From positions 841,348 through 905,347 of the forward strand of contig OY769902.1 in assembly GCA_963669175.1 (NCBI GenBank): DNA of 64,000 nucleotides, given 5' to 3'. The DNA comes from a bacterium (GTDB lineage Bacteria; Electryoneota; Electryoneia; Electryoneales; Electryoneaceae). Shown piece after piece: positions 3,039-63,003 of the stretch; the first letter of the stretch is position 1; the number at the start of each line of letters is the position of its first letter. The notes under the pieces are model-generated. The model saw only the letters and a program-made list of their open reading frames with translations, was not told where the DNA came from and made no database searches. The position numbers were made by a program, and so were the translations under genes.

Positions 3039-4608
3039 ACTACTCTTGAAAATAAACCGTCATGATAGTATCCGACGAACGATTCATAGGTGACTAGGAA
3101 TAAGCCTATGGAAAAAGGGGACAGTTTCCTTTTCCAGAAATACTTCAGAACTATTCTGTATAAGCGCGAGGAAAAGGATCCCGTCCCCTTTTCCCGGCAA
3201 TCTCTATTATGACGGAATAAAATCGAGTTCCTATGTTAAACGACAGGCGCATCAAGTCGTGTTGGAACTGCTATCTTAGCAGTATTCCATTTTTCCAACA
3301 CAAGGAGAAGCGCCATGTCGAAGAACCAAGTTATTGCAGCGGACCGTTCATTGTCTATAGGTCTGGATGTTGATTCGCAGACTTCTTTCGCCGTTGTGCT
3401 CGACACCCAGACTGGTGAAGTGCTCTTTGAGAATCGGATCAAGCATGACTCAGCCGCTTGGGAACGCTTCTTTGCCCGTTTTCCCAACTGCCGCATGTGG
3501 GCGTGTTATGAAGCGGGCCTCACCGGCTTTGGCCTCTGTCGTTACCTGATCGGCCAAGGTGTTGACTGCCAGATCGCGCCGCCCAGCCAAGTTCCCAAAG
3601 GGGCGCAAGCGAAGCAGCAGAAGACCGATCATCTGGATGCCCTTACCTTGGCCCACATGTTCTGGACACCACCTCGTACCTGGGTACATGTCCCCACAGA
3701 ACAGGAAGAGGCGGATCGTCAGTTGTCTCGCACCCGTGACCAGGTGATGAATGATCGCGTTCGGGTCAAAAACCGAATCAAGAGTCTGCTATTGTTTCAC
3801 GGTTTACAGTCACCGTTTCCGCCGCAACGCTATTGGACAAAGGAATACCGGCGCTGGTTGCGAACGTGTGATTGTCTGGCTGCGACACGGATAGCCATTG
3901 ATGTTGCTCTCGATGAGCTGGAGGCCATTGAACAGCAACTCAAGGTGATCACCAAAGCGATCAAGGCGATGAATGCGTCCGCAACGTATCGGGACCGTAC
4001 CCAGCGCCTGTGCCAGGTGAAAGGCGTGGGCGAGCTGACCGTGAACGCCTTCGTGACCGAGATGTATCGTCCCGAACGCTTCGCATCCGGTAAGCAAGTC
4101 GGCGCACATCTTGGCTTGACGCCGTGTGAATGGTCAAGCGCCAACACACGCCATATGGGACACATTACCCACTGGGGACCGTCCCATCTACGAAAACTAT
4201 TGGTCGAAGCTGCGTGGCGTTGGGTGCAAAAAGATCCGTATGCAAAGAAGAAATACGATGCGATCCATGCCGGGAAAACACGGAAAGTGGCGATCGTCGC
4301 CATGGCACGAAAACTAGCCGTGATACTGTGGGCCATGCTGGTCAAAGAACAAGACTACAATCCTGCCTGCGTATAACCCCAGCACTGCTGGCAGGTAGGT
4401 AAAGCATAGATTGTGATTGAATCGTCCGATGCCATTGGGAACACGCGACCCTGGTAGTTATTCTGTTGCTTGACAACGATTCGAGTTTAGGGCGCCGCTG
4501 TTCCGTGCGAACAAAAAACTTGTGCCACGAGCACGAATAGCAGAACGGCACATGGGACGATACAAAGGCTCTTTACACCCTTGACTGTTTACATAGCAGA
4601 ACAGCTAT
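3039..4608 (+). mobile_element. IS110-family insertion sequence, copy 1 (about 1570 bp, no obvious terminal IRs)
   Basis: Essentially identical to 45012-46687 apart from a 110-bp duplication present in copy 2. Single transposase ORF. 5' leader contains palindromic GGAAAAGG/CCTTTTCC motifs. Confidence 0.8.
3315..4376 (+). CDS. IS110 family transposase (DEDD-type)
   Basis: 353 aa. N-terminal IGLDVDSQTSFAVVLD (IS110 N-domain) and C-terminal GVGELTVNAFVTEM...GLTPCEWSSANTRHMGHITHWGPSHLRKLL (IS116/IS110/IS902 C-domain). Confidence 0.9.
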   Translation: MSKNQVIAADRSLSIGLDVDSQTSFAVVLDTQTGEVLFENRIKHDSAAWERFFARFPNCRMWACYEAGLTGFGLCRYLIGQGVDCQIAPPSQVPKGAQAKQQKTDHLDALTLAHMFWTPPRTWVHVPTEQEEADRQLSRTRDQVMNDRVRVKNRIKSLLLFHGLQSPFPPQRYWTKEYRRWLRTCDCLAATRIAIDVALDELEAIEQQLKVITKAIKAMNASATYRDRTQRLCQVKGVGELTVNAFVTEMYRPERFASGKQVGAHLGLTPCEWSSANTRHMGHITHWGPSHLRKLLVEAAWRWVQKDPYAKKKYDAIHAGKTRKVAIVAMARKLAVILWAMLVKEQDYNPACV

Positions 4609-4822
4609 ATTTCGCATGATAGATCGTCATCAGGCATCACATTGCGACCTGACGACAGCGAGAGTGCTGATACCGGTGGCAGGTCACAACGCGACAATAA
4701 CAGGACGAGAGGTGGTTTCAGTATCATGTGCATTCAGAAATACATTGCGAAAGCCGAAAACGGAATGTCGCGTCAAGACCTGCCACAACTTTGCCCGGAT
4801 GTACAAATTCTTGTGAGGAATC
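4609..4822 (+). repeat. MITE-A fragment (right 2/3 of a ~340 bp element, truncated by IS110 copy 1)
   Basis: Aligns with 20850-21103 and 62690-62912. Ends in right TIR ...CAAATTCTTGTGAGG. Contains hairpin GTCATCAGGC...GACCTGACGAC. Confidence 0.55.
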
Positions 4823-4840
4823 CATTTTAAGCGGCTGATT

Positions 4841-6246: not shown

Positions 6247-7118
6247 CCTGTCTCATACCCACATCTTCTGAAAGCTGTATCAGTAAAAGAGTTGTGGACA
6301 TAGCATTTTTAGAATCCCGGCGGGATTCCCTATTTTAGCATAGTGTACAGGCCGTCTGTTTGGCCTGTACACTATGTCAGGTATTCTAACGAATAATCAA
6401 CCCTGGAAGGGTTGCATAATACGCGATTCATATTAGTACGTTCAATAAATACAGGAAATAACGCATTTTATATTCTATACAAACCAATTGGGTGTAAATT
6501 ATACGTTATGCAACCCTTCCAGGGTTGAGATAAGGTTTGATCTTTTTCGTAGGGTAGACGCTAACCCGAATATTTCATGAACGGAACATGGATATTCATC
6601 TTAACACAGTTCATATCAACACAATACAACTGATTCATACAGCATTTTTCAGGGGACAGTTTGCTCCGGTATCCCTTTGCGTGTCTATTCCCTGTTTCGC
6701 TGGCAAAATAGGCTGAGAATCGGCAACCGCCCCGGCAGGGGCAACCTGTATTAGCCCCGGGCAGCCGCCGTCAGTTTGGCGGCTACCCGGGGAGATAATG
6801 CGCATCATATATTTACTCCGGAAGGAGTAACCTGATAATTATCAAAAGTATACAGTGGAAATATTCAGGCAACCCGCTGCCGGGGTTGGCAAGTAGCGTA
6901 CATCCTATTCCCACCGTGAGCGCCAAACAGACGGCGCTGGACGGTGGGCTAATACAGAGAACCACTGCCGTGGTTCTTGTACTGGCCATTCCATCAAATA
7001 CCAAATTTGAAATTGCATTGGTGAAATATTCGGGCTAAACAGACAGCGTCAACCCTACGCTAAAATATACCACCCCCTCTGGGGTGGCAGAAACACGAAG
7101 ATGTGAGCAAGAGACAGG
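6247..7118. repeat. MITE-E (TIR CCTGTCTCWTACCCACATCTTC) inserted into a MITE-C hairpin; itself carries MITE-D
   Basis: Ends 6247-6268 and 7097-7118 are inverted repeats. An uninterrupted 403-bp copy is at 63004-63406. Flanked by duplicated GCTGAAGCC from the target hairpin. Confidence 0.5.
6565..7028. repeat. MITE-D (464 bp, perfect 13-bp TIR CCCGAATATTTCA, 4-bp TSD CTAA)
   Basis: TIR 6565-6577 versus 7016-7028. CTAA sits on both sides (6561-6564, 7029-7032). Inserted in the loop of hairpin CGTAGGGTAGACGCTAAACAGACAGCGTCAACCCTACG, which is intact at 63305-63342. Confidence 0.65.
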
Positions 7119-7518: not shown

Positions 7519-9297
7519 CTATACCCCCAGGGTCATCTGTTCGTTTGCCGCTGTTTTATTCGGCGCTTCGGTTTGGGATGGCAATGAATGGCCGTTGACC
7601 AGGTTGTGGACGATGGCATCCATCAATTTTTCGCTGTGGGATCGGGACTGGGTTAGCTTGGCTTCCAGATCGTCACATAACGCCATCAGTTGGTCGACTT
7701 TTTCAACGATGCGTTTTTGTTCTTCAAGTGGTGGAATTGGCACGGGACAAGCCCGAAGCTGTGTCTTATTTATAGATGCAAGATTGGTTGTTTGTTTGGA
7801 TGATCCTGCGAAATAGTCCCTGGCGGGGACAGAATTCAGGTATAATTCAAGCCACTTTTCGTTTTGTTCGTCAAGCAGTTTTCTTGCCTTGAAGACATGG
7901 TTTTGATGGATACATAGCGGAATTTCCAGATTCCAAATACAGGTTCGTCCGACTTTATCCCAATCACCACCTTCAGTTATCAGCAGGTCTTTGCTTTGCA
8001 AGCTGAATTTTTCTATTTCATCTTCAGCAATTTCAATTTCTTTGATCATTGACAAATCCAGATGACCGCGTTGTACATTCGCAACGCGAAGGTATGGCAA
8101 CGATACAAGCTTTCGACCTTCCAGTTTACGACCCTTTGTGACACCGCTGCTGATAATGGTCAAATCTTCAAAACGTACCCACTCCCAGTTACTTGGTAGC
8201 AGGAAGGGATTTAACGCCAATTTCGATTTTGGGATCGGCGGAAGCCTCTTTAATTCCCCAGTAGACAGTAGCTGTTCTTTCTTGTTATGGACTGCATTTA
8301 CCAAAGCTTCTGCGCTATCGTCGCTAGGGGCTTGTGGAACAAGTTTGCCCTGAACAGCAAGCTGAAGGATGGCTTGGCGAAGTTCCTGGATGGTTGCGGG
8401 GGTGTCGTACAGGATATCGAAATGATCGGCGATCCGATGCCAGGCGTGTTGGAAGGTCGACGGGTCGCTGGCGGTCGTCAGGGAATGTAGGGACGCTTTA
8501 TTCAGGTTAATCCGTACCGATACCATTTTCTGCTGCTGCTGTTCCAATTCATCACACAACGCCATTAGTTGATCGACTTTTGCAACGATGCGTTTTTGTT
8601 CCGGTAATGGCGCTACGGGGATCAGTGTCATCCTTGCGTCTGTTGTATTCAGTCTTGGCAAATTAATTCCGTAAGTTTTGTTATTTACATAGGTTATAAA
8701 ATATGGGCTTTTCAAAATCCATCGAAGATAATATGGATCCATTCCTTCTAACACTACAATGGGTACAATTTCAGTTGTTGAGTATCCTGCTTCATCCGCA
8801 ACTATTACTTTATCCAAATATGGACGAAGTTTACCATACAATACGTCATTCCTTCGAAAGGATGTTTTGGTGCTTTTGGGCCTTCGTTGTTCAACGGTTA
8901 TTCTTTGTAATAACCTTGAACTAGATTTTTCTATATCTTCTAATTCAAGCATCCAGCGGTCAGATACTAACTGATTTGGTTCATGATTTTGACGACCTTT
9001 ATATATTGTCGTTTCACCTAAACGATTCCATTTCCAGCTCAATGGAATATCAAATGGAATTTCATTACTTTTTATCTTCGGTAATGTCTTTTCGGTTCTA
9101 ATACCTTCAACCTTATAGTGCTTTTGTTTCAATTCATTCATCTTATCAAACCAGACAACAACCGATTCATCATCAGGATCTTGTGAGACAAGTTTACCTT
9201 GAACCGCAAGCTGAAGGATCAATTCACGTAGCATTTGAATCCCGTTCGGGCCTTCAGCAAGGTGTCCGAAATTATCCATGAACGTCTGCGGGGTCAT
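7519..9297 (-). CDS. hsdS: type I restriction-modification system specificity subunit HsdS (two target-recognition domains)
   Basis: 592 aa. Two AT-rich variable TRDs separated by conserved repeats (7621-7760 approx equals 8521-8640). 4-bp overlap with hsdM stop. Confidence 0.85.
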   Translation of the reverse strand: MTPQTFMDNFGHLAEGPNGIQMLRELILQLAVQGKLVSQDPDDESVVVWFDKMNELKQKHYKVEGIRTEKTLPKIKSNEIPFDIPLSWKWNRLGETTIYKGRQNHEPNQLVSDRWMLELEDIEKSSSRLLQRITVEQRRPKSTKTSFRRNDVLYGKLRPYLDKVIVADEAGYSTTEIVPIVVLEGMDPYYLRWILKSPYFITYVNNKTYGINLPRLNTTDARMTLIPVAPLPEQKRIVAKVDQLMALCDELEQQQQKMVSVRINLNKASLHSLTTASDPSTFQHAWHRIADHFDILYDTPATIQELRQAILQLAVQGKLVPQAPSDDSAEALVNAVHNKKEQLLSTGELKRLPPIPKSKLALNPFLLPSNWEWVRFEDLTIISSGVTKGRKLEGRKLVSLPYLRVANVQRGHLDLSMIKEIEIAEDEIEKFSLQSKDLLITEGGDWDKVGRTCIWNLEIPLCIHQNHVFKARKLLDEQNEKWLELYLNSVPARDYFAGSSKQTTNLASINKTQLRACPVPIPPLEEQKRIVEKVDQLMALCDDLEAKLTQSRSHSEKLMDAIVHNLVNGHSLPSQTEAPNKTAANEQMTLGV

Positions 9298-10742
9298 GCG
9301 CCGTGTCCCCCAAGGGCGTCCATCAGTTCCTTTTTCAAGGCTTCGCGAACATTATCCAGATCAGACTGTACTTGGTGGTATTGCTTCAACAGTTTGTCGG
9401 GATCACCGGGGCCGTCGTCAATCGTGTTCGGGTTCTTGATGTCCAGGTTGTACCCGTTGGCCATGATATCTTTGACGGGGACACGCCAGGCCAATTCACT
9501 TTCTTCACGGTTGTCCCACCAGTCCTGTTCCGGTTGGAATTCTTCGAACCGAATGGGCTTTGTTTTGGAATACGACTTGTATCCGGGTGGGTATGGATGT
9601 TCGTAGTACCAGACTTCGGTTGTCGGTTCGCCCTTTGTGAAGAACAGCAGGTTCGTTTTGATACTGGTGTATGGATTAAAAACGCCGTTCGGCAAACGGA
9701 CAATCGTATGCAGGTTGCATTCTTTCAGCAGTTTTTCCTTGATCCGTGTCTTGATCCCTTCGCCGAACAGGCTGCCATCGGGAAGGACCAGGGCTGCACG
9801 TCCGCCCGGTTTCAGCAGGTGCATGATCAAGACAAGAAACAGGTCTGCGGTTTCCCGTGTCCGGAACGCTGTCGGGAAGTTCGATTCGATGCCGTCTTCT
9901 TCCATCCCGCCAAATGGGGGATTGGTCACGATCACATCCACACGGTCTTTCGGGCCGTAGTCACGCAAGGGACGCGCCAGGGTATTATCCCGTCGGATCT
10001 GGTGGGGAACATCTATCTGATGTAGCATCATGTTCGTGATACATAACAGGTGGGGAAGGGGTTTCTTTTCGACCCCCTGTATCGATGTTTGCAGGATTTC
10101 TTCTTCCATCGTTGTATTGACATATCTTGCCCGTTTATGATCTATGACATTGGCCAAAAAACCGCCTGTGCCACATGCCGGGTCAAGCACTTTTTCAGTC
10201 AGTTTTGGATCGACCCGGTCAACGATAAACTTCGTAATTGCACGGGGGGTGTAGTATTCGCCGGCGTTACCCGCGTTTTGCAAATCCTTCAGGATCTTTT
10301 CATAGATTTCATTAAACTGGTGACGATCATCAGATTTATTCAGGTTTATATCTTCGTTGATCTTGTTGATCACCTGCCGGATCAGCGTACCGTTCTTCAT
10401 GTAGTTGAACGAATCCTGGAACAGGCTGCGAATCACAACCTTGCGCTTTGAACCGTTGAGTTCGATAGTTTTCAGTTTCGGGAACAGGATATTGTTGACG
10501 AAGTCGAGCAGTTCATCGCCTGTCCTCCCTTCCGGATTATCCGCCCAGTTGCGCCAGCGTAGATGATCCGGAAGAGGGGATGTGTACCCGTTTTCCAGCA
10601 ATTCCCATTCCGATTCTCGCTGGTCAAAAATCTTCAGGAACAGCATCCAGGCAAGCTGGCTGATCCGTTGTGCGTCCCCATCCACCCCGACATCCTTGCG
10701 CATGATGTCCTGGATGGATTTTATGGTTGATCCTATGGCCAT
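9294..10742 (-). CDS. hsdM: type I RM N6-adenine DNA methyltransferase subunit HsdM
   Basis: 482 aa. HsdM N-domain; AdoMet motif DPACGTGGFL; catalytic NPPFGG motif (VIVTNPPFGGMEE). Confidence 0.9.
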   Translation of the reverse strand: MAIGSTIKSIQDIMRKDVGVDGDAQRISQLAWMLFLKIFDQRESEWELLENGYTSPLPDHLRWRNWADNPEGRTGDELLDFVNNILFPKLKTIELNGSKRKVVIRSLFQDSFNYMKNGTLIRQVINKINEDINLNKSDDRHQFNEIYEKILKDLQNAGNAGEYYTPRAITKFIVDRVDPKLTEKVLDPACGTGGFLANVIDHKRARYVNTTMEEEILQTSIQGVEKKPLPHLLCITNMMLHQIDVPHQIRRDNTLARPLRDYGPKDRVDVIVTNPPFGGMEEDGIESNFPTAFRTRETADLFLVLIMHLLKPGGRAALVLPDGSLFGEGIKTRIKEKLLKECNLHTIVRLPNGVFNPYTSIKTNLLFFTKGEPTTEVWYYEHPYPPGYKSYSKTKPIRFEEFQPEQDWWDNREESELAWRVPVKDIMANGYNLDIKNPNTIDDGPGDPDKLLKQYHQVQSDLDNVREALKKELMDALGGHGA

Positions 10743-10766
10743 GTATCGTTCGTTCCTTGCCGGTTT

Positions 10767-13169
10767 TTATGAAACAGCGGAATATAAAACAGTCTCCAGT
10801 TCTTTGATAGCCTCCAGGTATTTTTCCTTTGTCCCGAATGCTTCGATCAATTCTGTGAGCGTTCCAAGCTTCGATATTGGTTGAACCTGAAGGACTCTTA
10901 TTTCTTCAATGTTTTCAATCCCTTCATCAGCGTATTTATCAAGCAGGGCTTCCATCACAGCCCGTGCTTTTTCGCTGTACTTTCCGAAATAATTCCTCTT
11001 TTTGACATTATTCGCCCGTTCCTTACGAGTCAGTGGTGGTTGCCCGAACGCGACATGGCAGATCAGGTCGAAAGGTCCATAATCCCGCCCGACTTCATCC
11101 GCTAAAGCTTCGAACAGAACCCCCTGTTCTTCCAGTTCCTGGATAATCGCCTGTTTCTGATCAGCCTGGGACCATTTCTGCAAGAAGTCATCCAGGGAAT
11201 CGTATTCAGATTCAACTCGCTTACGGGTATAGTCTTTCAGGGATTCGGTTATCAGTTTGCCGTCGTTGCCGTAATACTGGACACGTTCACCAATGATTTC
11301 TACGTCAACATCATCAACGTAGTATTTGACTCTCTTGCCACCAGGTTTTTCATCAACCGGATACAATTCTTCCGGTGGAACAGGTTCAACCAGGATTTCT
11401 TCAATTTCATCTTCCGGAATGTCAGTGCCATCATCCGATTCATCAATTTCTTCCGGTTCCGGAGGAACGACAGGTTCATCCTCTTTGGGTTCATAGATCT
11501 GGATCGGTGGGCCATCGAATGCGGGATCAGCGAACAGTTCGGTGGCCTTCTTGAAGTCCATGATGGTGAAGAAGTATTTACCGTAGTCTTCGTTGATCCG
11601 TGTCCCACGTCCGATGATCTGTTTGAATTCGGTCATGGAATTGATGGTCTGGTCAAGGACAATCAGCTTGCAGGTCTGGGCATCCACACCAGTGGACATC
11701 AGCTTGGACGTTGTGGTGACAACAGGGTAACGCTGTTCCGGATCGATGAAATTATCCAGTTCCAGTTTGCCTTCCGGACTGTCCCCGGTTATGCGCATGA
11801 CGTATTTGCTGTTCTTCTTCACTTCCGCCTTGTTCAGGTTCACGATTGTGCTTCGCATCCGTTCTGCATGGTCGATATCTTCACAGAAAATGATGGTTTT
11901 GCTGTACGGGTCGGTGTTTTGAAGGAATTCCGTAACTTTGGACGCCACAAGTTCAGTACGTTTTTCCAGCACCAGCTTCCGGTCAAAGTCTTTCTGGTTG
12001 TAGATCCGGTCTTCGATTTCGTGGCCGTGTTTATCCCGTTTGCCAGCTTCTGGTCGCCAGCCTTCGATATCCTTATCGATATCTATCCTGACAACCTTGT
12101 ACGGTGCCAGGAAGCCGTCTTCGATGCCTTCTTTCAGCGAATAGGTATAAATGGGGTCACCGAAATAATGGATGTTGGATACGTGTTTCGTTTCTTTCGG
12201 TGTGGCGGTCAATCCCAGGTGTGTCGCGGATTTGAAGTATTCCAGGATCTGACGCCAGCTTGATTCCGCATCTGCACTGCCACGGTGGCATTCATCGATC
12301 ACGATTAAGTCGAAGAAGTCGGGGGAAAACTGCCGGTACACATTCATCACATCTTCATGGCCTGTAATTGCCTGGTACAGCGATAGATAGATTTCATAGG
12401 ATTTATCCACCTTGCGATTCTTGATCCGTGTCATCGCCGAACCGAAGGGCTTGAAATCATTGACTCGGGTTTGCTTGATCAGCACATCACGATCCGCCAG
12501 AAACAGGATACGTTTCTTCATACCGGCTTTCCACAAACGCCATATAATCTGGAAGGCGGTGAAGGTTTTCCCTGTACCTGTTGCCATTACCATCAGAACA
12601 CGGTCCTGCCCCTTGGCGATAGCTTCGACGGTTCGATTGATGGCGTTAATCTGGTAATACCTGGGTGTTTTTCCGCTGTCATCAGCGTAATAGGGTTGAG
12701 TGACGATGGGCTCCGACTTGGAATCAAGTTCCTTATCTGCACGGTATTTCTGCCATAACGCTTCCGGGGAGGGGAACTGGTCAAGCGCAAGTTCCTGTTC
12801 GACAGGCCCCGAAGAAGCGGTCTTATCGTGGGATTGAAAACCGTCACCATTGGAACTGAATACGAATGGCACATCCAGCGATTCCGAATAGTCCAAGGCT
12901 TGCTGCATTCCAGCGCTAATGCTGTGGTTGTTGTCCTTTGCTTCAATGACGGCAATCGGGATGTTGGGCTTGTAGAACAGGATGTAGTCAGCGCGTTTCT
13001 TTTTGCTGCGGGCAACCAGTTCACCACGAACGATGATTCGTCCAGCGGTAAAGGTCACTTCCTCACGGACTTGTGACTGGATATCCCATCCCGCATCCTT
13101 GATGGCCGGGGTGATGAATTTCGTGCAGATATCACGTTCACTAAGTGACTTCTTATTAATAACCTCCAA
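10767..13169 (-). CDS. hsdR: type I RM restriction endonuclease/helicase subunit HsdR
   Basis: HsdR N-terminal [13 protein letters not shown]; helicase motifs MATGTGKT and DECHR; C-terminal HsdR domain. Start assigned to TTG at 13169 (AGGAGG 6 nt upstream). The longer ORF to 13409 is an artefact that reads through the tRNA fragment. Confidence 0.8.
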
Positions 13170-13344
13170 TAGAATCCTCCTATTGTAGAAGCTTTGCAGC
13201 AGAATTTTATACTGAATCCTCTGTGTTACACAGAGATTGATATAATAAGAAATAGATTCTGCGTGGTCAAACAAAGCGAAATCATATTGACGAAAAAAGC
13301 TTCCAACAACAATGCTGGAAGCCTTAACACACTTGAATCCCAAA

Positions 13345-13392
13345 TGGTAGCGCGTACGGGAATCGAACCCGTGTTTCCGGCGTGAGAGGCCA
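13345..13392 (-). other. 48-bp duplicate of tRNA-Glu 3' portion (anticodon stem to CCA): attachment-site repeat
   Basis: Identical to 20586-20633. Not a complete tRNA. Confidence 0.85.
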
Positions 13393-13579
13393 CAAACTAC
13401 CCTTTTCACTGAACTTACTTCGCTGTTTTGGGCGGTCCCTTAACACTAGTGATAGAAAGCTGTTCAACGGGTTGAACCACTCCTTGACTTCCCTTCGCTT
13501 ACCTAGTTATATAGTCTGACAGGTGGGGACAATGGTGGGGAAGCTGTTCTATCACCCCGATACGAAACAGGAGGTTGTC

Positions 13580-14743
13580 ATGGCGGCCAAGTACAAACGG
13601 CAAAAGACACAATATCCCGGCGTGTTCTATCACGTCATGCCCAGGACCGGGCACAAAGAGGACGAGAAGGTTTACTACATTCGATTTAAGCGTGACGGAA
13701 AGCAATATGAGGAACGTGTTGGCGGTCAACATAGCAACGATATGACACCACAACGCGCAAACAATATTCGCGCCGAACGAATTGAGGGAAAACGTGAATC
13801 CAGGTTAGAGCGGCAAAAACGTGAAACTGAAGCGCGTGAAGCTGAACATAACGCCTGGACAGTGGCGAAGATTTGGGAATACTACAAGGAGATTCGGGGC
13901 GAGTGGAACAAATCACTTGCTACAGATGGCTACCGGTATGAATCCTATATCGCTTCAAGCTTTGGCAAGGAACAACCCAAGGCGATCAAGCCAGTTGACG
14001 TTGACCGGTGGCGTATGGATCTAGAAAAGCGCAATCTGTCGCCTCAGACGGTTCGCCATATCATGGCACTATTGAAACGAATCCTGAACTTCGCGAAGAA
14101 CCGTGTTCTGTGCGAAACCCCAGACTTCGCCTTCGATATGCCTCAGGTTGATAACATCAAAGACGATGCGCTCGATGCCGAACAGATTGATACGCTTGCA
14201 AAGGTACTGGATGAGGAAGAAAAACGTGGAGGCCCGTATAAACGTTTTGCTGGTATGATGCGGCTGGCACTGTTTACGGGAATGCGGCGAGGCGAGATAA
14301 CAAACTTGAAATGGGAAGATATTGACTGGCGGAACAACCTAATCGCAATTCGGAACCCCAAGGGTGGGAAAGATCAATTCATTCCATTGACCAATCTCTC
14401 GATCCCCGTACTCAAGGCACAGAAGCTCACCAAGAGTTCATACGTGTTCCCCGGTAAAGATGGACAGCGCCTGAAAAATACCTCAAAGCTATCCCGCGCA
14501 ATATTTGATAAAGCCAAGTTACCGAAAGACTATCGACCCTTTCACAGTCTTCGCCACACTTTCGCAACCGTGCTCGCCAGTTCTGGCAAGGTCGATATGT
14601 ACTCTCTCCAGCGTTTGCTAACGCATAAATCACCTATCATGACTCAACGATATGCAAAGCTACACGATGAAGCTCTCAGGCGAAGTGCAGACGTGGCAAC
14701 CAGTATCTTTGGTGGACATATCACCGGCGAAAAAGAAATTTGA
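13580..14743 (+). CDS. int: tyrosine-type site-specific integrase
   Basis: Catalytic box HSLRHTFAT...LLTHKSPIMTQRYAKL (R..H..R..Y). Start chosen at ATG 13580, 6 nt after AGGAGG. The ORF extends upstream to 13523. Confidence 0.85.
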   Translation: MAAKYKRQKTQYPGVFYHVMPRTGHKEDEKVYYIRFKRDGKQYEERVGGQHSNDMTPQRANNIRAERIEGKRESRLERQKRETEAREAEHNAWTVAKIWEYYKEIRGEWNKSLATDGYRYESYIASSFGKEQPKAIKPVDVDRWRMDLEKRNLSPQTVRHIMALLKRILNFAKNRVLCETPDFAFDMPQVDNIKDDALDAEQIDTLAKVLDEEEKRGGPYKRFAGMMRLALFTGMRRGEITNLKWEDIDWRNNLIAIRNPKGGKDQFIPLTNLSIPVLKAQKLTKSSYVFPGKDGQRLKNTSKLSRAIFDKAKLPKDYRPFHSLRHTFATVLASSGKVDMYSLQRLLTHKSPIMTQRYAKLHDEALRRSADVATSIFGGHITGEKEI

Positions 14744-14972
14744 CTCTCCAAATATTAGGATACTCTGAAGTTTCTTCGTGTTGTTAAGTTATTACTATCA
14801 TGCCTTTTACAACCAATTCCTACCTGGTTTATTATCTTTTTTTCCTCCCAAGGTTTGTAAAGAAAGAAATTGTAGTATTTCTTTGGAAGCACATCAAGGA
14901 GCAGGTACAAGTCAGAGCCTCTCGGTTTACCAATCAATTGCCGGGAGCATCACCTACATAAGGAGAGGAAAG

Positions 14973-15215
14973 ATGCTTAGTTCAGAGTCAACGACAACCC
15001 AACCGAAAGGGACCAAACCGATGTACCTCACTGAGCACCAAGTAGCTGAAATGACGGGGTTTGCCCTCCAGACGCTACGCAACTGGCGATTCCGGGGCGA
15101 AGGGCCGCGATACCTCAAGGTCGCAAAGCGGTCAATTCGATACCTGGAATCAGATGTGAACGAGTTTATGCAACGCAACCTGATTGAAACCGAGGAGGTC
15201 GCGAATGCTGCGTAA
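14973..15215 (+). CDS. AlpA/excisionase-family helix-turn-helix protein
   Basis: MYLTEHQVAEMTGFALQTLRNWRFRGEGPRYLKV matches the AlpA/Xis HTH. AGGAGAGG RBS before ATG 14973. The 5' extension to 14778 is probably not translated. Confidence 0.65.
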   Translation: MLSSESTTTQPKGTKPMYLTEHQVAEMTGFALQTLRNWRFRGEGPRYLKVAKRSIRYLESDVNEFMQRNLIETEEVANAA

Positions 15216-15381
15216 GGAAGAAAACAAAGAAGCCCCCCGTGGAACCGAGGGGCCAACACTTGTAAATGAACCGGGCTGCAACCCGGTTATACTCCAAACT
15301 CAAAGGAAACATAAGATCATGAAAACCAGAAATCAAGAGCGAATGAGTCAACTGTTCGCCAAGGAGGCGCTCAATGTCTGA
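15205..15381 (+). CDS. small basic hypothetical protein (58 aa)
   Basis: Stop overlaps the primase start in ATGTCTGA (translational coupling). Confidence 0.3.
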   Translation: MLRKEENKEAPRGTEGPTLVNEPGCNPVILQTQRKHKIMKTRNQERMSQLFAKEALNV

Positions 15382-17713
15382 TACGCCTCTTAACATCGTT
15401 CTTCAAACACTCCACCAACACGGCTCACCCGCACAGCAGAAAACCGGATACTGGCTGGCTCGGTGTCCAGCCCATGACGACAGCAACCCCTCGCTATCTA
15501 TTAGCGAAGGGGACCAGGGCCAAGTCCTGCTCAAGTGTCATGCGGGATGCGGTACGGAAGACATTGTATCGGCCCTTGGGCTTTCCATGGGGGATCTCTT
15601 CCCCAAGGACACCCCACCACCTGCGCGGAAGAAGCAACAGAATCCCAAACAACAGCCCAAGATCGTTAAAGAGTACAACTACCAAGACGAGAATGGTGAG
15701 CTGCTGTACCAGGTGGTGCGATACAAACCGAAGGGTTTCAAGCAGCGTAGACCAAACCCAGAGCGGCACGGGAAATGGATATGGAGTTTAGACGATGTTG
15801 TTCGTGTTCCCTATCGTCTACCTGAGCTTTTGGCTTCGGATTTGGCGATTATTGTCGAGGGCGAAAAAGACGCAGACCGGCTCGCCCATGCCGGTTTCAC
15901 CGGAGCAACCACCTTCCCAATGGGAGCGGGTAATTGGCGGCCCGAATACACGCAGCACTTCACGGGTAAAGACGTTGTGATATTACCCGATGCAGACACA
16001 TCGGGCAAAGAACACGGCTCGAAGGTCGCCGGGAATCTGCACGGTGTTGCGAAGCGTGTTCGCTTGCTGGAGCCTTTCTCCAACGCAAAGGACGTAAGCG
16101 ACTGGTTAGACTCAGGCGGAACGGTGGAGCAGCTACGGAAGCTAATGGACATTTGTCCAACATACTCTCCCGAGAACCCACCAGAATGGGCCGTAGGGAC
16201 GAAAAAGGAGCCCTCTTCCACACCTACTTTCAACATACCAAAACTCGAAGAGGCGCTCAAAACCAATGAAGTTGGTAACGCCGAACTATTAGTGAAGCGT
16301 CACAAGCACGAGCTGCGATTCGAACCCAACCTGAACAGGTGGTACAGGTGGACAGGACGGCAGTGGAAGCAAACTCCTAAGATTGCTATAAAGGGATTAG
16401 CCCGTGAAGTAATCATGCAGGAGTTGCCAACAGAAGTAAAACAGGCTGGCAACGATTTAGATCGGTTTCAGACCTGTTTGAGACACTTCCAAGTCTCAGC
16501 ACGTGATAAGCAATTCGATGCTATGGTTCGGATTGCAGAATCGTACTCAGAATTGTGGGTTGACGCTAGCGACTTCGATGCGGAGCCTTGGTTGTTCAAC
16601 GTACAAAATGGAGTCCTTGATCTTCGCACCGGCGAACTACTTCCGCACTCGTCGGACAGACTGATCATGAAGATTGCTCCTGTCACCTGGCAAGGGCTGG
16701 AGGTCACGTCTGCTCTCTGGGAGAGTTTCCTCGAGCGGTTGTGCGGGAGTGAAAACGGCTCAAGTGAGGATAGCGTGGAGCGTCTAAAAGACTATCTACA
16801 GAGCGTTGCCGGTTATCTGTTGTTTGGAGGCAACCCGGCGGAGAAGTTCTTTCTTATACACGGCCCCAAGCGGTCCGGCAAGTCTACGTTTCTGGCCGCT
16901 CTATTCAGCGCAATGGGCGATGCTAAGCTAGACGGGTACGCCAACGCCTCGAATGCGGAGACTTTCCTGCAATCGGGAGACCGAGGCGACGGTAGCAAAC
17001 CCAGGTCCGATCTCATGGCTTTCATGGGAGCAAGGTTTGTCTTTGCCAGCGAGTTTCCAGAATACCGGCGATTCGATTCGGCTAAGATGAAAATGTGGAG
17101 CGGCGGTGATCCAATCACAGCAAGGGCTCCATACAACAAGTGCGAGACCACATTCAAACCGATGTTCACGATTGCGATTGCTACGAACGATCTACCGACA
17201 CTTGAACGGACAGACGCGGCGCTATGGGATAGGGCGATACCTCTACCTTTCCCATATTCCATACCAGAGGGGCAGCGAGACCCCAACGTGAAGGAGGCGC
17301 TCTCAGACCCTGAACAGCACGGCGCGGCTATCCTGGCTTGGGCTGTTAGAGGGTTACTGGTATATCGTGACAACGGAAACCAGCTTCCATCTTTGCCGCC
17401 CGAAGTATTGCGAAGCAAAGAAGACTTGTTCGCCGAGCAAGACCCGCTCCGTGAATTCATTGAGGAGTGTTGTGAGCTTCAGCACGATGCTTGGGTAAGC
17501 CGTACCCTGTTGCGGAGAGCTTACGTGGACTATGCTTCTGAGGTTGGTGATCACCCTATTGGCAATCGAAAGTTTTCTGACCTGATCCTTGCACGTGATG
17601 ACATCACGCGCACTCAGAAACGTGACGGTGATAAACGTGTTTGGGGGTATGAGGGGATTCGACTTGCTCGAGACGTGACACAAAACATTGTTAAACTGAA
17701 AGAGGTTGCCTAA
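15374..17713 (+). CDS. P4-family DNA primase/helicase (zinc-binding + Toprim + D5_N + SF3 P-loop)
   Basis: 779 aa. N-terminal CPAHDDSNPSLSI...CHAGCG zinc motif; Toprim-like EGEKDADRLAHAGF; Walker A GPKRSGKST. Confidence 0.85.
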   Translation: MSDTPLNIVLQTLHQHGSPAQQKTGYWLARCPAHDDSNPSLSISEGDQGQVLLKCHAGCGTEDIVSALGLSMGDLFPKDTPPPARKKQQNPKQQPKIVKEYNYQDENGELLYQVVRYKPKGFKQRRPNPERHGKWIWSLDDVVRVPYRLPELLASDLAIIVEGEKDADRLAHAGFTGATTFPMGAGNWRPEYTQHFTGKDVVILPDADTSGKEHGSKVAGNLHGVAKRVRLLEPFSNAKDVSDWLDSGGTVEQLRKLMDICPTYSPENPPEWAVGTKKEPSSTPTFNIPKLEEALKTNEVGNAELLVKRHKHELRFEPNLNRWYRWTGRQWKQTPKIAIKGLAREVIMQELPTEVKQAGNDLDRFQTCLRHFQVSARDKQFDAMVRIAESYSELWVDASDFDAEPWLFNVQNGVLDLRTGELLPHSSDRLIMKIAPVTWQGLEVTSALWESFLERLCGSENGSSEDSVERLKDYLQSVAGYLLFGGNPAEKFFLIHGPKRSGKSTFLAALFSAMGDAKLDGYANASNAETFLQSGDRGDGSKPRSDLMAFMGARFVFASEFPEYRRFDSAKMKMWSGGDPITARAPYNKCETTFKPMFTIAIATNDLPTLERTDAALWDRAIPLPFPYSIPEGQRDPNVKEALSDPEQHGAAILAWAVRGLLVYRDNGNQLPSLPPEVLRSKEDLFAEQDPLREFIEECCELQHDAWVSRTLLRRAYVDYASEVGDHPIGNRKFSDLILARDDITRTQKRDGDKRVWGYEGIRLARDVTQNIVKLKEVA

Positions 17714-17718
17714 GAGAT

Positions 17719-17905
17719 TTTGTCACCGTTGTCACCACAATATAGCCCAAATTGTAACAACCTCTCACGAATACGGATATGAAAAGAGTTTTGAAAAAAC
17801 ACGGTTATTACGGTGACAGCGGTGACACTTCACGTAAACACTCACGTACAGTATTTGAGCGGCGAGCCAGAGATGAAGCCTCTAAGGTATTTTTTCACAT
17901 TCACG
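17719..17905. other. candidate replication origin: TTGTCACC iterons in direct and inverted orientation plus three CACGTAAA repeats
   Basis: TTGTCACCGTTGTCACC at 17719-17735 and its inverse GGTGACAGCGGTGACAC at 17809-17825. CACGTAAA repeated 3 times at 17827-17905. Sits immediately downstream of the primase gene. Confidence 0.35.
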
Positions 17906-18045
17906 TAAATCGCTGCATTGCGCCGTCAAACCTACGATTGAGCGATGCGAGCCATGTGATTCTAATGTGTCACATTTAGGTGCTCATCTCTATACTACCG
18001 GGTTCGGCGGAAAAAACAGGATTGATTGCGTAGAAAGGAAACGAA

Positions 18046-18384
18046 ATGCTCGATAAGGAAAACCTCGTGATAGCGAAGTTCGAAGAGTTATACGAGTTGG
18101 TATATGGTACTGCGGTCGATTGGCTCGACCGTACCGAGGATGAGAAGCTCGGACACATTATGAAAATTATGACGGTCAACAAAGTGTGTCCAAAGTGTGG
18201 AGGCGAGCTTCGAAAAGTAAGCGGACAGTACGGTCTATTCTACGGGTGCTCGTGTTATCCAGATTGCGACTATCGGGAGTCCATTAAGGCAGCAGGCGAC
18301 AAAGAGGCAAAGCGCCAAGTCCAGTTGGCCGTAGCAGAAACGTTTGACAGGATGGCCCACTATGCGAGATCGGGTTTATCCTAG
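18046..18384 (+). CDS. hypothetical protein with C4 zinc-finger (topoisomerase-type zf: CPKCGGEL...FYGCSCYPDC)
   Basis: 112 aa. Motif matches zf-C4_Topoisom. Confidence 0.6.
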   Translation: MLDKENLVIAKFEELYELVYGTAVDWLDRTEDEKLGHIMKIMTVNKVCPKCGGELRKVSGQYGLFYGCSCYPDCDYRESIKAAGDKEAKRQVQLAVAETFDRMAHYARSGLS

Positions 18385-18454
18385 CGATATTTGAGGTACA
18401 TCGTCAGGTTCGCCCGGAACTTTCCGAAGGTCTGGAAAATTCAACCTCAACATT

Positions 18455-18500
18455 CCCCGCTCGTTACCATAGCATTAGTAAACGAGTGGGGATTTCTTTT
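18455..18500 (+). terminator. rho-independent terminator
   Basis: CCCCGCTCGTT...AACGAGTGGGG stem followed by ATTTCTTTT. Confidence 0.5.
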
Positions 18501-18556
18501 GACTTCTGGTGTGATAGCACATATCTTGCATATTAGCCTATGAACACCGATTAGCC

Positions 18557-19237
18557 TTGGGGGACACGATGAACAAGACCTTCCTTGCTTTTCCTCTATT
18601 CCTGATCCTTGCTCTGTCTTTCGGTTGTGACAGTGATGATGATAACGGGGTTGGTAACGATGGCGGTAATGATGAGCCAGAAGCTCCAGTTGCCGAAGAG
18701 GTGGCGGACCTGTTTCCGCTTGGGGACGGGTTGTCTTGGGTCTACTTGTATCCTGGTGATAATGACACCACTATCGAGGTAAGAAGCTACGATACAGGTG
18801 AGCGGTACGACGGTGAGATACTGTATCGAATGGGTTCGTTTCATGAGAGTTCTGGGATGTGGGGCGGTAATACCTACTCTGTGACGAACGATAGTGTGCG
18901 TATGTATGTTTGGGACGAACAGCGTGGCGACTATATAACGATGCCTGACTTCTATAGCTTCCCCTGGGCACAACAAGGTGCTGTTATAGACAACGATGGA
19001 AGCAACTTCTGTTGGCGTGTATGGGCCTCTGACAGTACGATGACCGTACCCGCCGGTACGTTTGAGCATTGCTACGTTGTACGCTATGGAAGATATGACA
19101 ACACTGATCCTCGGGGGCGTTACTACAAGGCATACGCGCCGGAGATTGGGTTGATTAAATGGTGGTTTGACGATGCGACACGGTACAATCGAGAATTGAT
19201 TTCGTTTGGTGAAGTTTCCGAGGGGTTGGAAAATTGA
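18557..19237 (+). CDS. hypothetical secreted protein / candidate lipoprotein
   Basis: Signal peptide MNKTFLAFPLFLILALSFGC, then an acidic low-complexity linker. Confidence 0.55.
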   Translation: MGDTMNKTFLAFPLFLILALSFGCDSDDDNGVGNDGGNDEPEAPVAEEVADLFPLGDGLSWVYLYPGDNDTTIEVRSYDTGERYDGEILYRMGSFHESSGMWGGNTYSVTNDSVRMYVWDEQRGDYITMPDFYSFPWAQQGAVIDNDGSNFCWRVWASDSTMTVPAGTFEHCYVVRYGRYDNTDPRGRYYKAYAPEIGLIKWWFDDATRYNRELISFGEVSEGLEN

Positions 19238-19346
19238 TACGGACATTCAGCTACAGATGTACACTATGTGGGCGACAGAGGATTTGGTGCTTCATAAATT
19301 TATACTACAATTGCAGTGGGACGTGAGATTTTAAAGGAGTCTGACG

Positions 19347-20252
19347 ATGAGGAAAATGCTGTTTTTTGTTTTAATGACAATAGCAAGTGTGGTGAATATT
19401 GTACATTCACAAGAAATTGATGAATTGGATAAAGGAATCCTTTATTACAACATGGGACTAGATACTTTGGCTTACAAAAAACTATTGCCACTTGCAGAAG
19501 ATGGTAATGCTGTTGCACAATACTATGTTGCGACTATCTACCTTCATGACACTTTAGATATTAGTGATGAACAGAAGGCAATTTATTGGTATCATCAAGC
19601 AGCGGGAAATAACCATACTACTGCACAATATAATCTCGCTATCTTTTATACGCAAGGCAAACACGTTAATCAAGACTTTACTAAAGCACTTTATTGGGCA
19701 ATAAAAGCGTCTGATAATGGTGATTCTGATGCACAATACCTGGTAGGGTTGTTGTATGGTATGAAAACCGACAGTTCAAAGTCTTATGAATATTTTAAGC
19801 TTTCCGCTGAAGGAGGCCATGCTGATGCGCAGTATCGTTTAGGTTCATATTATGAGTCAGGTATAGGAGTTGAAGCTGACAATATTAAAGCATTAGAATG
19901 GTATCAAAAATCTGCTGACCAAGGAAACGTGGAAGCAAGCTATTGTTTAGGTCGATTTTACTTTACAGGTATTGGGGTTCCTCAAGATTTCATGCAAGCA
20001 GTAAAATGGTTTGAAATAGCTGCCGAACGCGGAGATAAAGATGCACAATTTGCATTAGGAGGTATCTATAAATATGGCTTTGGAGTTGAACAAGATAGAA
20101 CAATAGCATATATGTGGTTGAATTTAGCAGCCGCGCAAGGACATGGAGAGGCTATTGAGGAGCGTCAGGAACTATTATTAAGGATGACAAACGAGGAAAT
20201 CATTGAGGCTCAGCGTCTCTCCCGTGAATGGAAAGTGGAAACGGAAGACTGA
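19347..20252 (+). CDS. Sel1-repeat (TPR-like) secreted protein
   Basis: Signal peptide. At least 6 Sel1-like repeats (AQY.LG.[FY]Y..G.GV..D...A..W[YF].KAA..G). AT-rich relative to neighbours. Confidence 0.75.
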   Translation: MRKMLFFVLMTIASVVNIVHSQEIDELDKGILYYNMGLDTLAYKKLLPLAEDGNAVAQYYVATIYLHDTLDISDEQKAIYWYHQAAGNNHTTAQYNLAIFYTQGKHVNQDFTKALYWAIKASDNGDSDAQYLVGLLYGMKTDSSKSYEYFKLSAEGGHADAQYRLGSYYESGIGVEADNIKALEWYQKSADQGNVEASYCLGRFYFTGIGVPQDFMQAVKWFEIAAERGDKDAQFALGGIYKYGFGVEQDRTIAYMWLNLAAAQGHGEAIEERQELLLRMTNEEIIEAQRLSREWKVETED

Positions 20253-20585
20253 TATTGCATATCGCGGGCACCGAATCATAATACCCAAGCACAGCCAATG
20301 CCCCCCCCACTTGCCTTGCACCCCCGTCACCCTGTCATTCGAGGGTGAAGTTCGCACCAATCTACAGCCTTAGCTACATAGTTGCGGCATGGCTCCCGCT
20401 ATCGCACCTCATAGAATCCATCCTGAGGCGCGTAGACCGCCTGTGGCGCGGTTTTCTCCACCTTGGCAAGGGTCAAGGCCATTGAGAAAGAAAACGCCTT
20501 TCTGGTGGGGAATATGGTGGGGAAGCAAAAAAGCGGCTCCAGGAGAACCGCTTTCAAGAAAGATGTAAACAGCTATTTTACAACT

Positions 20586-20660
20586 TGGTAGCGCGTACGG
20601 GAATCGAACCCGTGTTTCCGGCGTGAGAGGCCAGCGTCCTGACCGCTGAACGAACGCGCC
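20586..20660 (-). tRNA. tRNA-Glu (anticodon CUC), 75 nt with encoded CCA
   Basis: Manually folded. Acceptor GGCGCGU/ACGCGCU, D-arm GUUC/GGAC, anticodon stem CUGGC/GCCGG with loop CUCUCAC, T-arm ACGGG-UUCGAUU-CCCGU. Confidence 0.85.
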
Positions 20661-20761: not shown

Positions 20762-21103
20762 TGAAAAGTTAGGCTGCTCACAAGAATTTGTACATACAAT
20801 CGACGAGCACGTTTCGTCAGGTCTTGACACGATACCTTTTTCTTGTTTTTTACCGCAATTGCAGACACCTGTCCGACTTTACGCCTGCAATTTTACATGA
20901 TAGTTCGTCGTCAGGCATCGTGTTATAACCTGACGACTGCGAGAATGCTGATATCGGTGGCAGGTCACAACGCGACAAAAACAGGGCGAGAGGCGGTTTC
21001 TGTATCATCGTTATTCAGGAAAACATTGCTAAAGCCGAAGACAGAATGTCGCGTCAAGACCTGCCACAACATTGCCCGGATGCACAAATTCTTGTGAGGA
21101 ACC
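20762..21103. repeat. MITE-A complete copy (342 bp, TIR CTCACAAGAATTTGT, 8-bp TSD AAAAGTTA)
   Basis: Imperfect ~50-bp TIRs. TSD at 20754-20761 and 21104-21111. Inserted inside an array of GAAAGTT octamers. Confidence 0.65.
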
Positions 21104-21400
21104 AAAAGTTAGAAAGTTCAAAAGTTACCTATCCTTATCGTCCTACTACCTGAAAAATTGTTACCTTCCCGACTTGCTGCCAGATATTGTTATTCTGCGA
21201 AACTTCTCTTCCATAACATTCCCCTGTTTTGGAATCAGAGAACATCACAGGCAAATCGGGCCATGCCTCACTGGAGTTGGAAAGTTACAAAGCTTGAAAG
21301 TTCTAAAGTTATTTGAATGATTGCATAGAATACGGTCATAAATCAGGTTTCAGACATGGCATAATGTCAGTAACCATTCACTCTTTTCATCATTCTTTCA

Positions 21401-46687: not shown

Positions 46688-46740
46688 CCAGATATGGTTA
46701 AGTTTTTGTACTCCGCAGGAGTACGATAAGTGAGCCCAGG

Positions 46741-46880
46741 GTTGGCAAGTAGCGTACATCCTATTCCCACCGTGAGCGCCAAACAGACGGCGCTGGACGG
46801 TGGGCTAATTCAGGGAACCACTGCCGTGGTTCTTGCACTGGCCGTTCCATCAAGTATCACATTGAAATTCCAATGGTGAA
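46741..46880. repeat. MITE-D right-end fragment abutting IS110 copy 2
   Basis: Matches 6884-7028 including hairpin CCCACCGTGAGCGCCAAACAGACGGCGCTGGACGGTGGG and terminal GTGAAATATCCGGG. Confidence 0.5.
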
Positions 46881-47014
46881 ATATCCGGGCTAATGGCAGA
46901 TTAAACAAAAAAACGGGACCGACCCTGATGAGTCAGTCCCGATTTCAAAACATCATGCTATCCGGACATCAGAATCGATGATATCCTTCAATCCTTGTTT
47001 TCTGTGAAGAGCTT

Positions 47015-62357: not shown

Positions 62358-62578
62358 TATGTTCATTCAAAGCAGAAAGTATCCCGCCACTTCGAGGTGA
62401 ATTCTCACCACAACATGAACTGGATTCATGTATACACATTGTTCGCTAGCCCGAATATTTCATGAACAAAACATGGATAATCATCTTAACACATTTCATA
62501 TCAGCACAATACAACTGATTCATACAGCATTTTGCAGGGTACAGTTTGCTCCGGTATCCCTTTGCGTGTTTATTCCTT

Positions 62579-62912: not shown

Positions 62913-63003
62913 ATTCCTTGTTTCGCTGACAAACTGAAGCTGAGTTTCGGAAACCGCCCCGGAAGGGGCAATCTGTATTAGCCCAGGGCGGCCGCCGTTA
63001 GTT

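Follow-up and report, generated by a model that had tools for sequence, protein, structure and literature searches.

The window analysed here is a stretch of 64,000 nucleotides from a bacterium of the family Electryoneaceae (Electryoneota; GenBank assembly GCA_963669175.1, contig OY769902.1, positions 841,348 to 905,347 of the forward strand), and all positions below count from its first letter. An integrative element of 7,241 bp (7.2 kb) is inserted in it, into the 3′ 48 nt of a tRNA-Glu(CTC) gene. The element carries a gene for a tyrosine integrase, a gene for a small HTH_17 protein and a gene for a P4-family primase-helicase, and the 2.5 kb of its distal part hold three cargo genes, which encode a zinc-ribbon protein, a lipoprotein and a Sel1-repeat protein. 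The features and their coordinates are given in Table 1. All credible genes between the two ends of the element lie on the plus strand; the open reading frames (ORFs) of the minus strand, such as that at 18596-19246, are shadows of the plus-strand genes.

Table 1. Features of the element in tRNA-Glu and of the operon beside it (aa, amino acids; R-M, restriction-modification).
Feature	Position	Strand	Basis or remark
Complete tRNA-Glu(CTC)	20586-20660	-	ARAGORN; Rfam tRNA, 60.9 bits
att core next to the tRNA, part of the intact tRNA-Glu	20586-20633		Repeat identity
att core far from the tRNA, displaced 3′ 48 nt of tRNA-Glu	13345-13392		Repeat identity
Hairpin and U-run beside the displaced tRNA half	13296-13325	-	13-bp stem then UUUUUU; z = -3.55
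Element-borne hairpin and U-run	20529-20555	-	12-bp stem then UUUUUU; 30 nt past the tRNA 3′ end
Tandem arm-type repeat GGTGGGGAcaATGGTGGGGAAGC, 12-bp period, over the int start codon	13521-13544	+	Candidate integrase arm-binding site
Tandem arm-type repeat TGGTGGGGAAtaTGGTGGGGAAGC	20503-20526	+	Candidate integrase arm-binding site
Tyrosine integrase, 403 aa	13532-14743	+	PF00589, 95.6 bits; phrog_1, 4e-61
HTH_17 protein, excisionase/AlpA type, 80 aa	14973-15215	+	PF12728, 33.9 bits (cutoff 27); phrog_66
Primase-helicase, 779 aa (Zn finger, Toprim, D5_N, SF3 helicase)	15374-17713	+	D5_N, 91 bits, and DUF5906
Non-coding candidate origin, crr-like	17714-18045		Convergent TGTCACC iterons just past the primase gene
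Cytoplasmic C4 zinc-ribbon protein, 112 aa	18046-18384	+	Zn_ribbon_Top1, 50.7 bits (cutoff 32)
25-bp direct repeat, first copy	18417-18441	+	21/25 identical to 19211-19235
Lipoprotein, 222 aa	18569-19237	+	Signal peptide and lipobox LSFG↓C (MNKTFLAFPLFLILALSFG↓C)
25-bp direct repeat, second copy, last 8 codons of the lipoprotein ORF	19211-19235	+	21/25 identity
Secreted Sel1-repeat protein, 301 aa	19347-20252	+	PF08238, 181 bits, 6 stretches
hsdR	10767-13169	-	Type I R-M operon
hsdM	9294-10742	-	Type I R-M operon
hsdS	7519-9297	-	Type I R-M operon

The evidence for the insertion is in the tRNA gene itself. It is the single tRNA that ARAGORN reports in the window, and its end is present a second time on the other side of the element, as a direct repeat of 48 nt whose two copies are 100% identical and lie 7,241 bp apart from start to start. 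Since the tRNA is on the minus strand, the copy inside the gene is the 3′ end of the tRNA, positions 28-75 with the CCA included, and the displaced copy is itself recognised, weakly (22 bits), as part of a tRNA. A 24-mer from the centre of the repeat occurs exactly twice in the window, against 0 occurrences in 100 shuffles. Thus, the insert has the two marks of a tRNA-borne island, namely an intact tRNA gene that bounds it together with a displaced direct-repeat copy of the 3′ part of that gene, and a site-specific recombinase encoded between the repeats. An earlier note on this DNA had described the repeat as tRNA-Glu positions 28-75 and had proposed an element of 7.3 kb in the 3′ part of the gene; both descriptions hold, and the ORFs that it had listed are all present at their places, with matches to Phage_integrase, HTH_17, D5_N with DUF5906, Zn_ribbon_Top1 and, six times, Sel1. 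The exact 48-bp core found no empty site in a collection of genome contigs, but such a query is too strict, and the source genome and its close relatives are absent from that collection.

Each copy of the repeat is accompanied by a hairpin followed by a run of Us. The hairpin beside the displaced tRNA half is the original chromosomal terminator of tRNA-Glu, and the left repeat is the old chromosomal end of that tRNA. The hairpin just past the intact tRNA is one brought in by the element, and it terminates the reconstituted tRNA-Glu gene. The tRNA would stay functional because the element supplies both an identical 3′ half and a terminator of its own.

The catalytic residues of the integrase (R, HxxR and Y) can be read directly in its translation as RRGE, HSLRH and RYAKL. 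PF00589 is the only domain detected in the protein, with no match to Arm-DNA-bind_3 in Pfam. The HTH_17 protein matches phrog_66, which is annotated as excisionase and transcriptional regulator, and it is a candidate for the factor that gives excision its direction or for a regulator; a promoter-like site lies at 14806-14835. The primase-helicase scores 156.6 bits to TIGR01613 ('phage/plasmid primase, P4 family', cutoff 108.7) and matches phrog_6088 at 8.7e-124. The products of the integrase, HTH_17, primase, zinc-ribbon and lipoprotein genes all have exact matches in a public protein collection, on one and the same contig of 5,447,365 bp, and the start codons of the integrase, HTH_17 and lipoprotein genes were checked against that collection. 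With the exception of the lipoprotein, each of these products is a singleton at 90% identity.

Two small features lie in the interval between the HTH_17 and primase genes. One is a GC-rich hairpin at 15231-15254, which scores as a terminator on the minus strand only. The other is a possible mini-ORF of 20 codons that starts at 15319 and overlaps the start of the primase gene. Together they could form a regulatory leader.

Directly after the stop codon of the primase gene there is a non-coding region with a conspicuous arrangement of iterons. The sequence TGTCACC-gt-TGTCACC at 17721-17736 (copies starting at 17721 and 17730) is followed, after an AT-rich spacer of 75 bp, by the inverted GGTGACA-gc-GGTGACA at 17812-17827 (copies starting at 17812 and 17821), so that 4 of the 21 copies of TGTCACC in the window fall within 107 bp as two convergent pairs. 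The same region holds TTCACGTAAA twice, at 17829 and 17900. An ORF of 66 codons at 17779-17979 (orf66) overlaps the iterons; it has no family match in Pfam, PHROGs or NCBIfam and is absent from the public protein collection. With neither homolog nor annotation we do not count it as a gene, and the region is probably non-coding.

A second set of repeats flanks the att core. A repeat of 23 nt, 21/23 identical between 13522-13544 and 20504-20526, consists in each copy of two TGGTGGGGAA units 12 bp apart, and this motif is found nowhere else in the window beyond these two sites (0 expected). In the circular form of the element the copy at 20504-20526 would lie 59 bp from the core and the copy at 13522-13544, which covers the start codon of the integrase gene, 128 bp from it. 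The candidate origin, these repeats and the terminator carried by the element are additions to what the earlier note had described.

Both sets of repeats have a counterpart in phage P4. In the P4 record (NC_001609), the alpha gene is followed by a terminator and by crr, which has paired type 1 iterons 9 bp apart together with inverted copies, and the P4 iterons (TGTTCACC) are at 4291-4590 of the record, 3′ of the primase gene. Around the core of the P4 attP, arm repeats of 12 bp stand in tandem at distances of 53 bp and 112 bp, and a further one covers the start codon of int. Thus, the element shares with P4 a primase-helicase of the P4 family, iterons directly 3′ of the primase gene, integration in the 3′ end of a tRNA, and arm repeats with a period of 12 bp that flank the core, one of them over the int start, with spacings of 59 and 128 bp here versus 53 and 112 bp there. 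By analogy with P4 attP, we propose the TGGTGGGGAA repeats as candidate arm sites of the integrase, flanking the att core with P4-like spacing.

On the other hand, the proteins are remote from those of P4. The primase is 24% identical to alpha over 306 residues of its helicase part, the integrase is 19% identical to P4 Int (E = 0.002), and the HTH_17 protein has no BLAST similarity to P4 ORF88. No ORF of the element matches Sid, Psu, Delta or Epsilon in Pfam, PHROGs or NCBIfam, and no P4 cI-type immunity RNA was detected in the element. The cargo is also differently placed, between the crr-like region and attP, whereas the hotspot of P4 lies between psu and int. If a P4-like satellite is defined as in SatelliteFinder by int, alpA, alpha, epsilon, sid, delta and psu, the element has the alpha-type primase but neither the sid, psu, delta and epsilon genes nor an integrase with Arm-DNA-bind_3. 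The earlier note had called the element P4-like. This stands for the backbone of integrase, AlpA-type protein and P4-family primase, but the likeness goes only as far as the primase family and the cis layout.

The relatives of the primase tell us how general the layout may be. The best homolog other than the protein itself is 38% identical, among 5.8 billion proteins, and eight relatives could be placed on contigs. Two of the eight (P0006 and P0018) have the order integrase, HTH_17, primase; a third (P0029) has HTH_17 and primase with the integrase gene downstream; and two of the eight loci look like prophages, one with RusA and the other with terminase and portal genes. The genes that follow the primase are different in every one of the eight. 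As examples, there is a CarboxypepD_reg protein with an acetyltransferase and an Mrr nuclease in one relative, ERCC4 with a type I R-M system in another, and an RHS protein in a further one. What recurs is the gap after the primase gene, which is 330-540 bp here and in four of the eight relatives (410-540 bp in those four). Convergent iterons recur in three of the relatives. In locus L090 the sequence TGTTACC occurs three times and GGTAACA three times around a spacer of 64 nt (11149-11267), in L092 GTTTGAA occurs twice and TTCAAAC twice around a spacer of 42 nt (11130-11237), and in L006 there are convergent arrays of GTTACC (2361-2475); in all three the arrays stand right after the primase stop codon. 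Convergent iterons 3′ of the primase gene, each with a motif of its own, thus look like a general feature of this clade of primases. It is because of these arrays and of the crr of P4 that we take 17714-17830 as a candidate origin or crr-like site.

The closest known kinds of element are the minimal satellites with integrase, AlpA and primase (PICMI-like), the cargo-carrying tycheposons and, for the cis layout, P4. A PICMI is defined by the co-localisation of an integrase (PF00589), an AlpA-type HTH protein (PF05930 or PF12728) and a primase (PF13148 or PF19263) (Barcia-Cruz et al. 2024, PMC10803314). The element has all three, in Pfam families above their cutoffs, within 4.2 kb and on one strand. 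Like a PICMI, it has a genome of about 6-7 kb with the mandatory integrase, HTH and primase genes (PF19263/DUF5906), no genes for capsid remodelling or packaging, accessory genes between primase and att site, and large non-coding stretches with questionable small ORFs. The attachment site is different: the element sits in tRNA-Glu with a core of 48 bp, whereas PICMIs lie downstream of fis with repeats of 17 bp, and no gene overlapping the integrase gene (iolg) and no homolog of up1 or up2 is seen here. Tycheposons (Hackl et al., bioRxiv 10.1101/2020.12.28.424599) combine a tyrosine recombinase, an excisionase and a primase/helicase with modular cargo, integrate in the 3′ ~40 nt of tRNA genes leaving a partial tRNA behind, and have no capsid or conjugation genes. 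In all of this the element resembles them by its architecture, but their lineage is defined by Prochlorococcus-type integrases and seven tRNAs, and their typical cargo consists of clusters for nutrient acquisition, not of small exported proteins.

From these comparisons a plausible life cycle can be drawn. Int would recombine the 48-bp core, aided by the TGGTGGGGAA arm sites at either side, and the arm site over the int start codon makes autoregulation possible. The HTH_17 protein may trigger or direct excision, as AlpA does in PICMIs, which are also packaged without a morphogenesis gene of their own (PMC10803314). The primase-helicase would replicate the excised circle from the convergent TGTCACC iterons just downstream of its gene, in a layout like that of alpha and crr in P4. 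As no gene for packaging, capsid remodelling or conjugation is recognisable, transfer most likely depends on a helper, which might be a phage, as for PICMI-type satellites, or another vector.

It is at this step that the element might turn out to be something other than a phage satellite, such as an integrative mobilisable element or an integrated plasmid, spread by conjugative helpers, by vesicles or by transformation, or else an island that was recently immobilised. No terS, capsid, cos-related, Sid, Psu or Delta function was detected. Nor does the element show the markers of a PICI, cfPICI or PLE (terS, ppi, a capsid module or PLE-specific genes), as PHROGs and Pfam give no structural or packaging match. 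Prophages and other islands can carry P4-family primases too, and tycheposons, which have the same backbone, are enriched both in vesicles and in capsids (bioRxiv 10.1101/2020.12.28.424599). Yet scans with Pfam and PHROGs find no relaxase or recognisable oriT in the element either, the set of integrase, AlpA-type protein and primase is exactly the one that defines PICMIs, which are packaged satellites, and the perfect 48-bp repeats and intact catalytic motifs argue against long immobility. We regard a non-satellite nature as possible but rather unlikely.

The remaining question is what the three cargo genes are, and whether they belong together. The zinc-ribbon protein, which has one topoisomerase-type C4 ribbon at residues 47-82, is probably a small nucleic-acid-binding (DNA-binding) protein. 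The parts on either side of the ribbon, 45 residues N-terminal and 30 residues C-terminal, match no family, and the protein has no signal peptide. A word-indexed search of the 5.8 billion proteins, which gave 6 candidates and does not reach remote relatives, returned the protein itself only. It has no sequence match in the PDB, no relative in IMG/VR and no paralog at 90% identity or above, and its matches in phages are at the level of the domain only. An analogue of Ogr/Delta was considered and rejected, as the protein has no BLAST similarity to P4 Delta and matches Zn_ribbon_Top1, not Ogr/Delta.

For the lipoprotein, the same word-indexed search finds one relative, a paralog (P0001) that is 86% identical and is encoded on the same contig of 5,447,365 bp, outside the window. 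The paralog has a different C-terminus, and the two diverge just upstream of the second copy of the 25-bp repeat. A phmmer search of 1.84 billion representatives adds 17 weak relatives (E = 5e-7 to 7e-4), most of them lipoproteins of about 220 residues with the motifs FPLxxGxxWxY, TVTVPAGTFxxC and YAPGxGxxK. We aligned the window protein and its paralog with 13 of the weak relatives, and 13/15 of these sequences match DUF3108_like (PF21347), with a best E-value of 6.5e-10; the window protein by itself reaches 15.8 bits, below the cutoff of 27. The profile of the family finds 3fzx and 4fvs in the PDB at about 1e-7. With the alignment as input, AlphaFold2 gives the lipoprotein a pLDDT of 82 and a pTM of 0.75 (with two sequences the pLDDT is 32), and the predicted fold is the same as that of the solved DUF3108-like members.

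The lipoprotein thus appears, on family profile and predicted fold, as a divergent member of the DUF3108-like family of envelope lipoproteins, folded into an open beta-barrel of the LolA/RseB type. With the DUF3108-like lipoproteins (PF21347; 4fvs, 3fzx), which belong to the LolA/LolB/RseB/MucB superfamily, it shares the length of about 220 residues, the N-terminal lipobox and the three motifs, but taken alone it stays under the Pfam cutoff; the family itself has no established function. In the better-known structural relatives this type of barrel binds acyl chains or lipids. To say that the lipoprotein has no assignable function, as had been said before, was therefore too strong. IMG/VR holds no relative of it, a viral structure library gives nothing at E < 0.01 and no TM-score above 0.23, and a scan of the genome-contig collection with the alignment gave no match, in a collection that lacks the source genome and its close relatives.

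The two copies of the 25-bp repeat bracket the lipoprotein gene, and their consensus, GAASTTTCCGARGGnnTGGAAAATT, is found in only these two places in the window; the similarity ends at about 26 bp. This suggests a cassette-like insertion of the gene. No other primase from the source contig is found among the best 120 matches of the primase, hence the paralog of the lipoprotein does not sit inside a close sister element.

The Sel1 protein has a Sec-type signal peptide (...NIVHS↓QE). None of its closest relatives in phages, IMG/VR and JGI metagenomes exceeds 45% identity (those in IMG/VR are 33% identical), and its closest solved relatives (8sxq, 4bwr, 6ok3 and 6deh) are all generic Sel1 proteins. 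Similarities to the NCBIfam models of MerG, AlgK, MotX and ExoR are far under the cutoffs. It is a generic Sel1 solenoid, which we infer to act as a scaffold for protein-protein interactions in the periplasm. The product of 301 residues, as well as two versions with shorter starts, is missing from the public protein collection, unlike the products of all the other genes of the element; the gene may have been annotated with another start or called a pseudogene, or the sequence there may differ. The Sel1 gene also stands out in composition, with a GC content of 0.38 and a GC content at third codon positions (GC3) of 0.28, whereas GC3 is 0.51-0.60 in every other gene of the element (0.51-0.58 in the other two cargo genes) and about 0.5-0.6 in most chromosomal neighbours. 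This outlying GC3 points to a separate and probably recent import from a donor of lower GC.

The earlier note had put the three cargo genes forward as the best candidate for an undescribed accessory system, for instance against phages, in the cargo slot of a satellite. The general premise is sound, because the slot between primase and att site in PICMI-type satellites is documented to hold defence genes, one of them UP2, a single-gene system that had not been known before (PMC10803314). Moreover, the three genes are adjacent on the same strand in just that slot, and all three are without close homologs, as is often the case in novel systems. The evidence from the genes themselves goes the other way. 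Their composition is strongly heterogeneous; the gaps between them are long (184 bp between the zinc-ribbon and lipoprotein genes, 109 bp between the lipoprotein and Sel1 genes), each with a promoter-like match, which is weak evidence; the lipoprotein gene has its own bracketing repeats and a paralog with a different 3′ end; and most known defence effectors are not exported, whereas two of these three products are. In PADLOC-DB 2.0.0 the zinc-ribbon protein and the lipoprotein have 0 matches, and the only match of the Sel1 protein is a spurious one, in which 54 residues of repeat type align to the N-terminus of PtuA.

Comparison with other genomes does not bring the genes together either. Among 80 loci that encode relatives of the Sel1 protein, none has anything related to the zinc-ribbon protein or to the lipoprotein family. 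None of the eight primase-relative loci lists a Zn_ribbon_Top1 or Sel1 gene. Of seven primase relatives, five have no Zn_ribbon_Top1, Sel1 or DUF3108-like gene in the stretch examined, and in the other two tblastn with the zinc-ribbon protein and with the lipoprotein family finds nothing related; a tblastn search of six primase-relative loci with the lipoprotein family gave no match. The trio was thus not seen elsewhere in the loci covered. Given the break in GC3, the gaps, the 25-bp repeats, the paralog, the lack of co-occurrence and the lack of a defence match, we infer that the three genes are not a unit but unrelated passengers that were separately acquired, and the idea of a single system has become very unlikely.

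A more restricted proposal leaves the zinc-ribbon protein aside. Phage lipoproteins such as Llp, Cor and Ltp act as superinfection-exclusion or receptor-masking factors. The lipoprotein of the element, with or without the Sel1 protein, could likewise shield the envelope of the carrier cell, and hence the element itself, from other phages. Both products carry export signals, the two genes are adjacent in a slot that is a defence hotspot in related satellites, and the predicted LolA/RseB-type barrel is of a kind that binds lipids or lipoproteins. But the lipoprotein has no sequence or fold match to known exclusion proteins, the family members retrieved are ordinary environmental lipoproteins, and the Sel1 gene looks like a separate, later import, so that we consider this role unlikely. 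It would be a long shot to go one step further and see in the lipoprotein and the periplasmic Sel1 protein an undescribed envelope module of a minimal helper-dependent satellite, which would exclude phages or alter the host surface, perhaps with the zinc-ribbon protein as its regulator. If the lipoprotein and the Sel1 protein have such an action at all, we would expect it at the cell envelope, as a modification of the surface or periplasm or as superinfection exclusion, and not as cytoplasmic abortive infection.

Taking the backbone and the cargo together, we consider it probable that the element is a P4-style integrative replicon with three independent passengers, which depends on a helper for its transfer. 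Several points weigh against this reading. Every step of the life cycle has been read from sequence. The integrase has no arm-binding domain that Pfam can detect, so the assignment of the arm sites rests on geometry and on the analogy with P4, and the iteron motif of the candidate origin has four copies only. For the cargo, the 25-bp repeat is short, and we estimate roughly that chance would give about 0.05 such pairs per 10 kb. PADLOC 2.0.0 dates from 2023 and cannot detect systems that are undescribed. The genome may hold elsewhere a further copy of all three genes that has diverged to below 90% identity, and that no related trios were seen may be due to the poor sampling of the lineage.

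Outside the element, directly beyond the left att copy and downstream of the original tRNA terminator, there is a complete type I R-M operon on the minus strand (7519-13169), in which hsdS has a GC content of 0.435, below that of hsdM and hsdR. A form of hsdR with 880 codons, the first 80 of which would run through the att copy, was rejected: the protein collection has the form of 800 residues, with a TTG start at 13169 behind AGGAGG. The operon therefore belongs to the chromosomal context, and as it lies outside the repeat and beyond the original terminator we do not count it as a part of the element. On the other side of the tRNA there are 820 bp of repeat-rich non-coding DNA and then a cluster for polysaccharide and cell-wall functions (Bac_transf, SLT_2, Wzy_C).

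The window contains further repeated sequences. An insertion sequence of the IS110 family (DEDD_Tnp_IS110 and Transposase_20) is present in two copies, 3113-4609 and 45191-46687, which are 99.3% identical over 1,498 bp. Dispersed non-coding repeats, 88-100% identical in pieces, are found at 20769-21104, 62444-63400, 6248-7118, 4608-4826 and 46736-46893. One copy lies between tRNA-Glu and the sugar-transferase gene, in a region that also has three GAAAGTT-rich repeats of 45 nt (at 20727, 21083 and 21267). For this family, a non-autonomous mobile element and a repeated regulatory region are both conceivable. Finally, an FMN riboswitch is found at full length on the plus strand at 52717-52905 (Rfam RF00050, 94.9 bits).

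The element is a clean and apparently intact example of a minimal integrative replicon with integrase, excisionase-type and primase genes, in a lineage other than the well-studied Enterobacterales and Vibrionaceae. Sampling of this lineage is so thin that most of the proteins of the element are singletons at 90% identity. The assignment of a family and of a predicted fold to the lipoprotein is a useful by-product. More generally, the P4-type cis layout persists here at protein identities of 19-24%; it offers a guide for marking origins and att sites in elements of this sort and a safeguard against spurious ORF calls within them.

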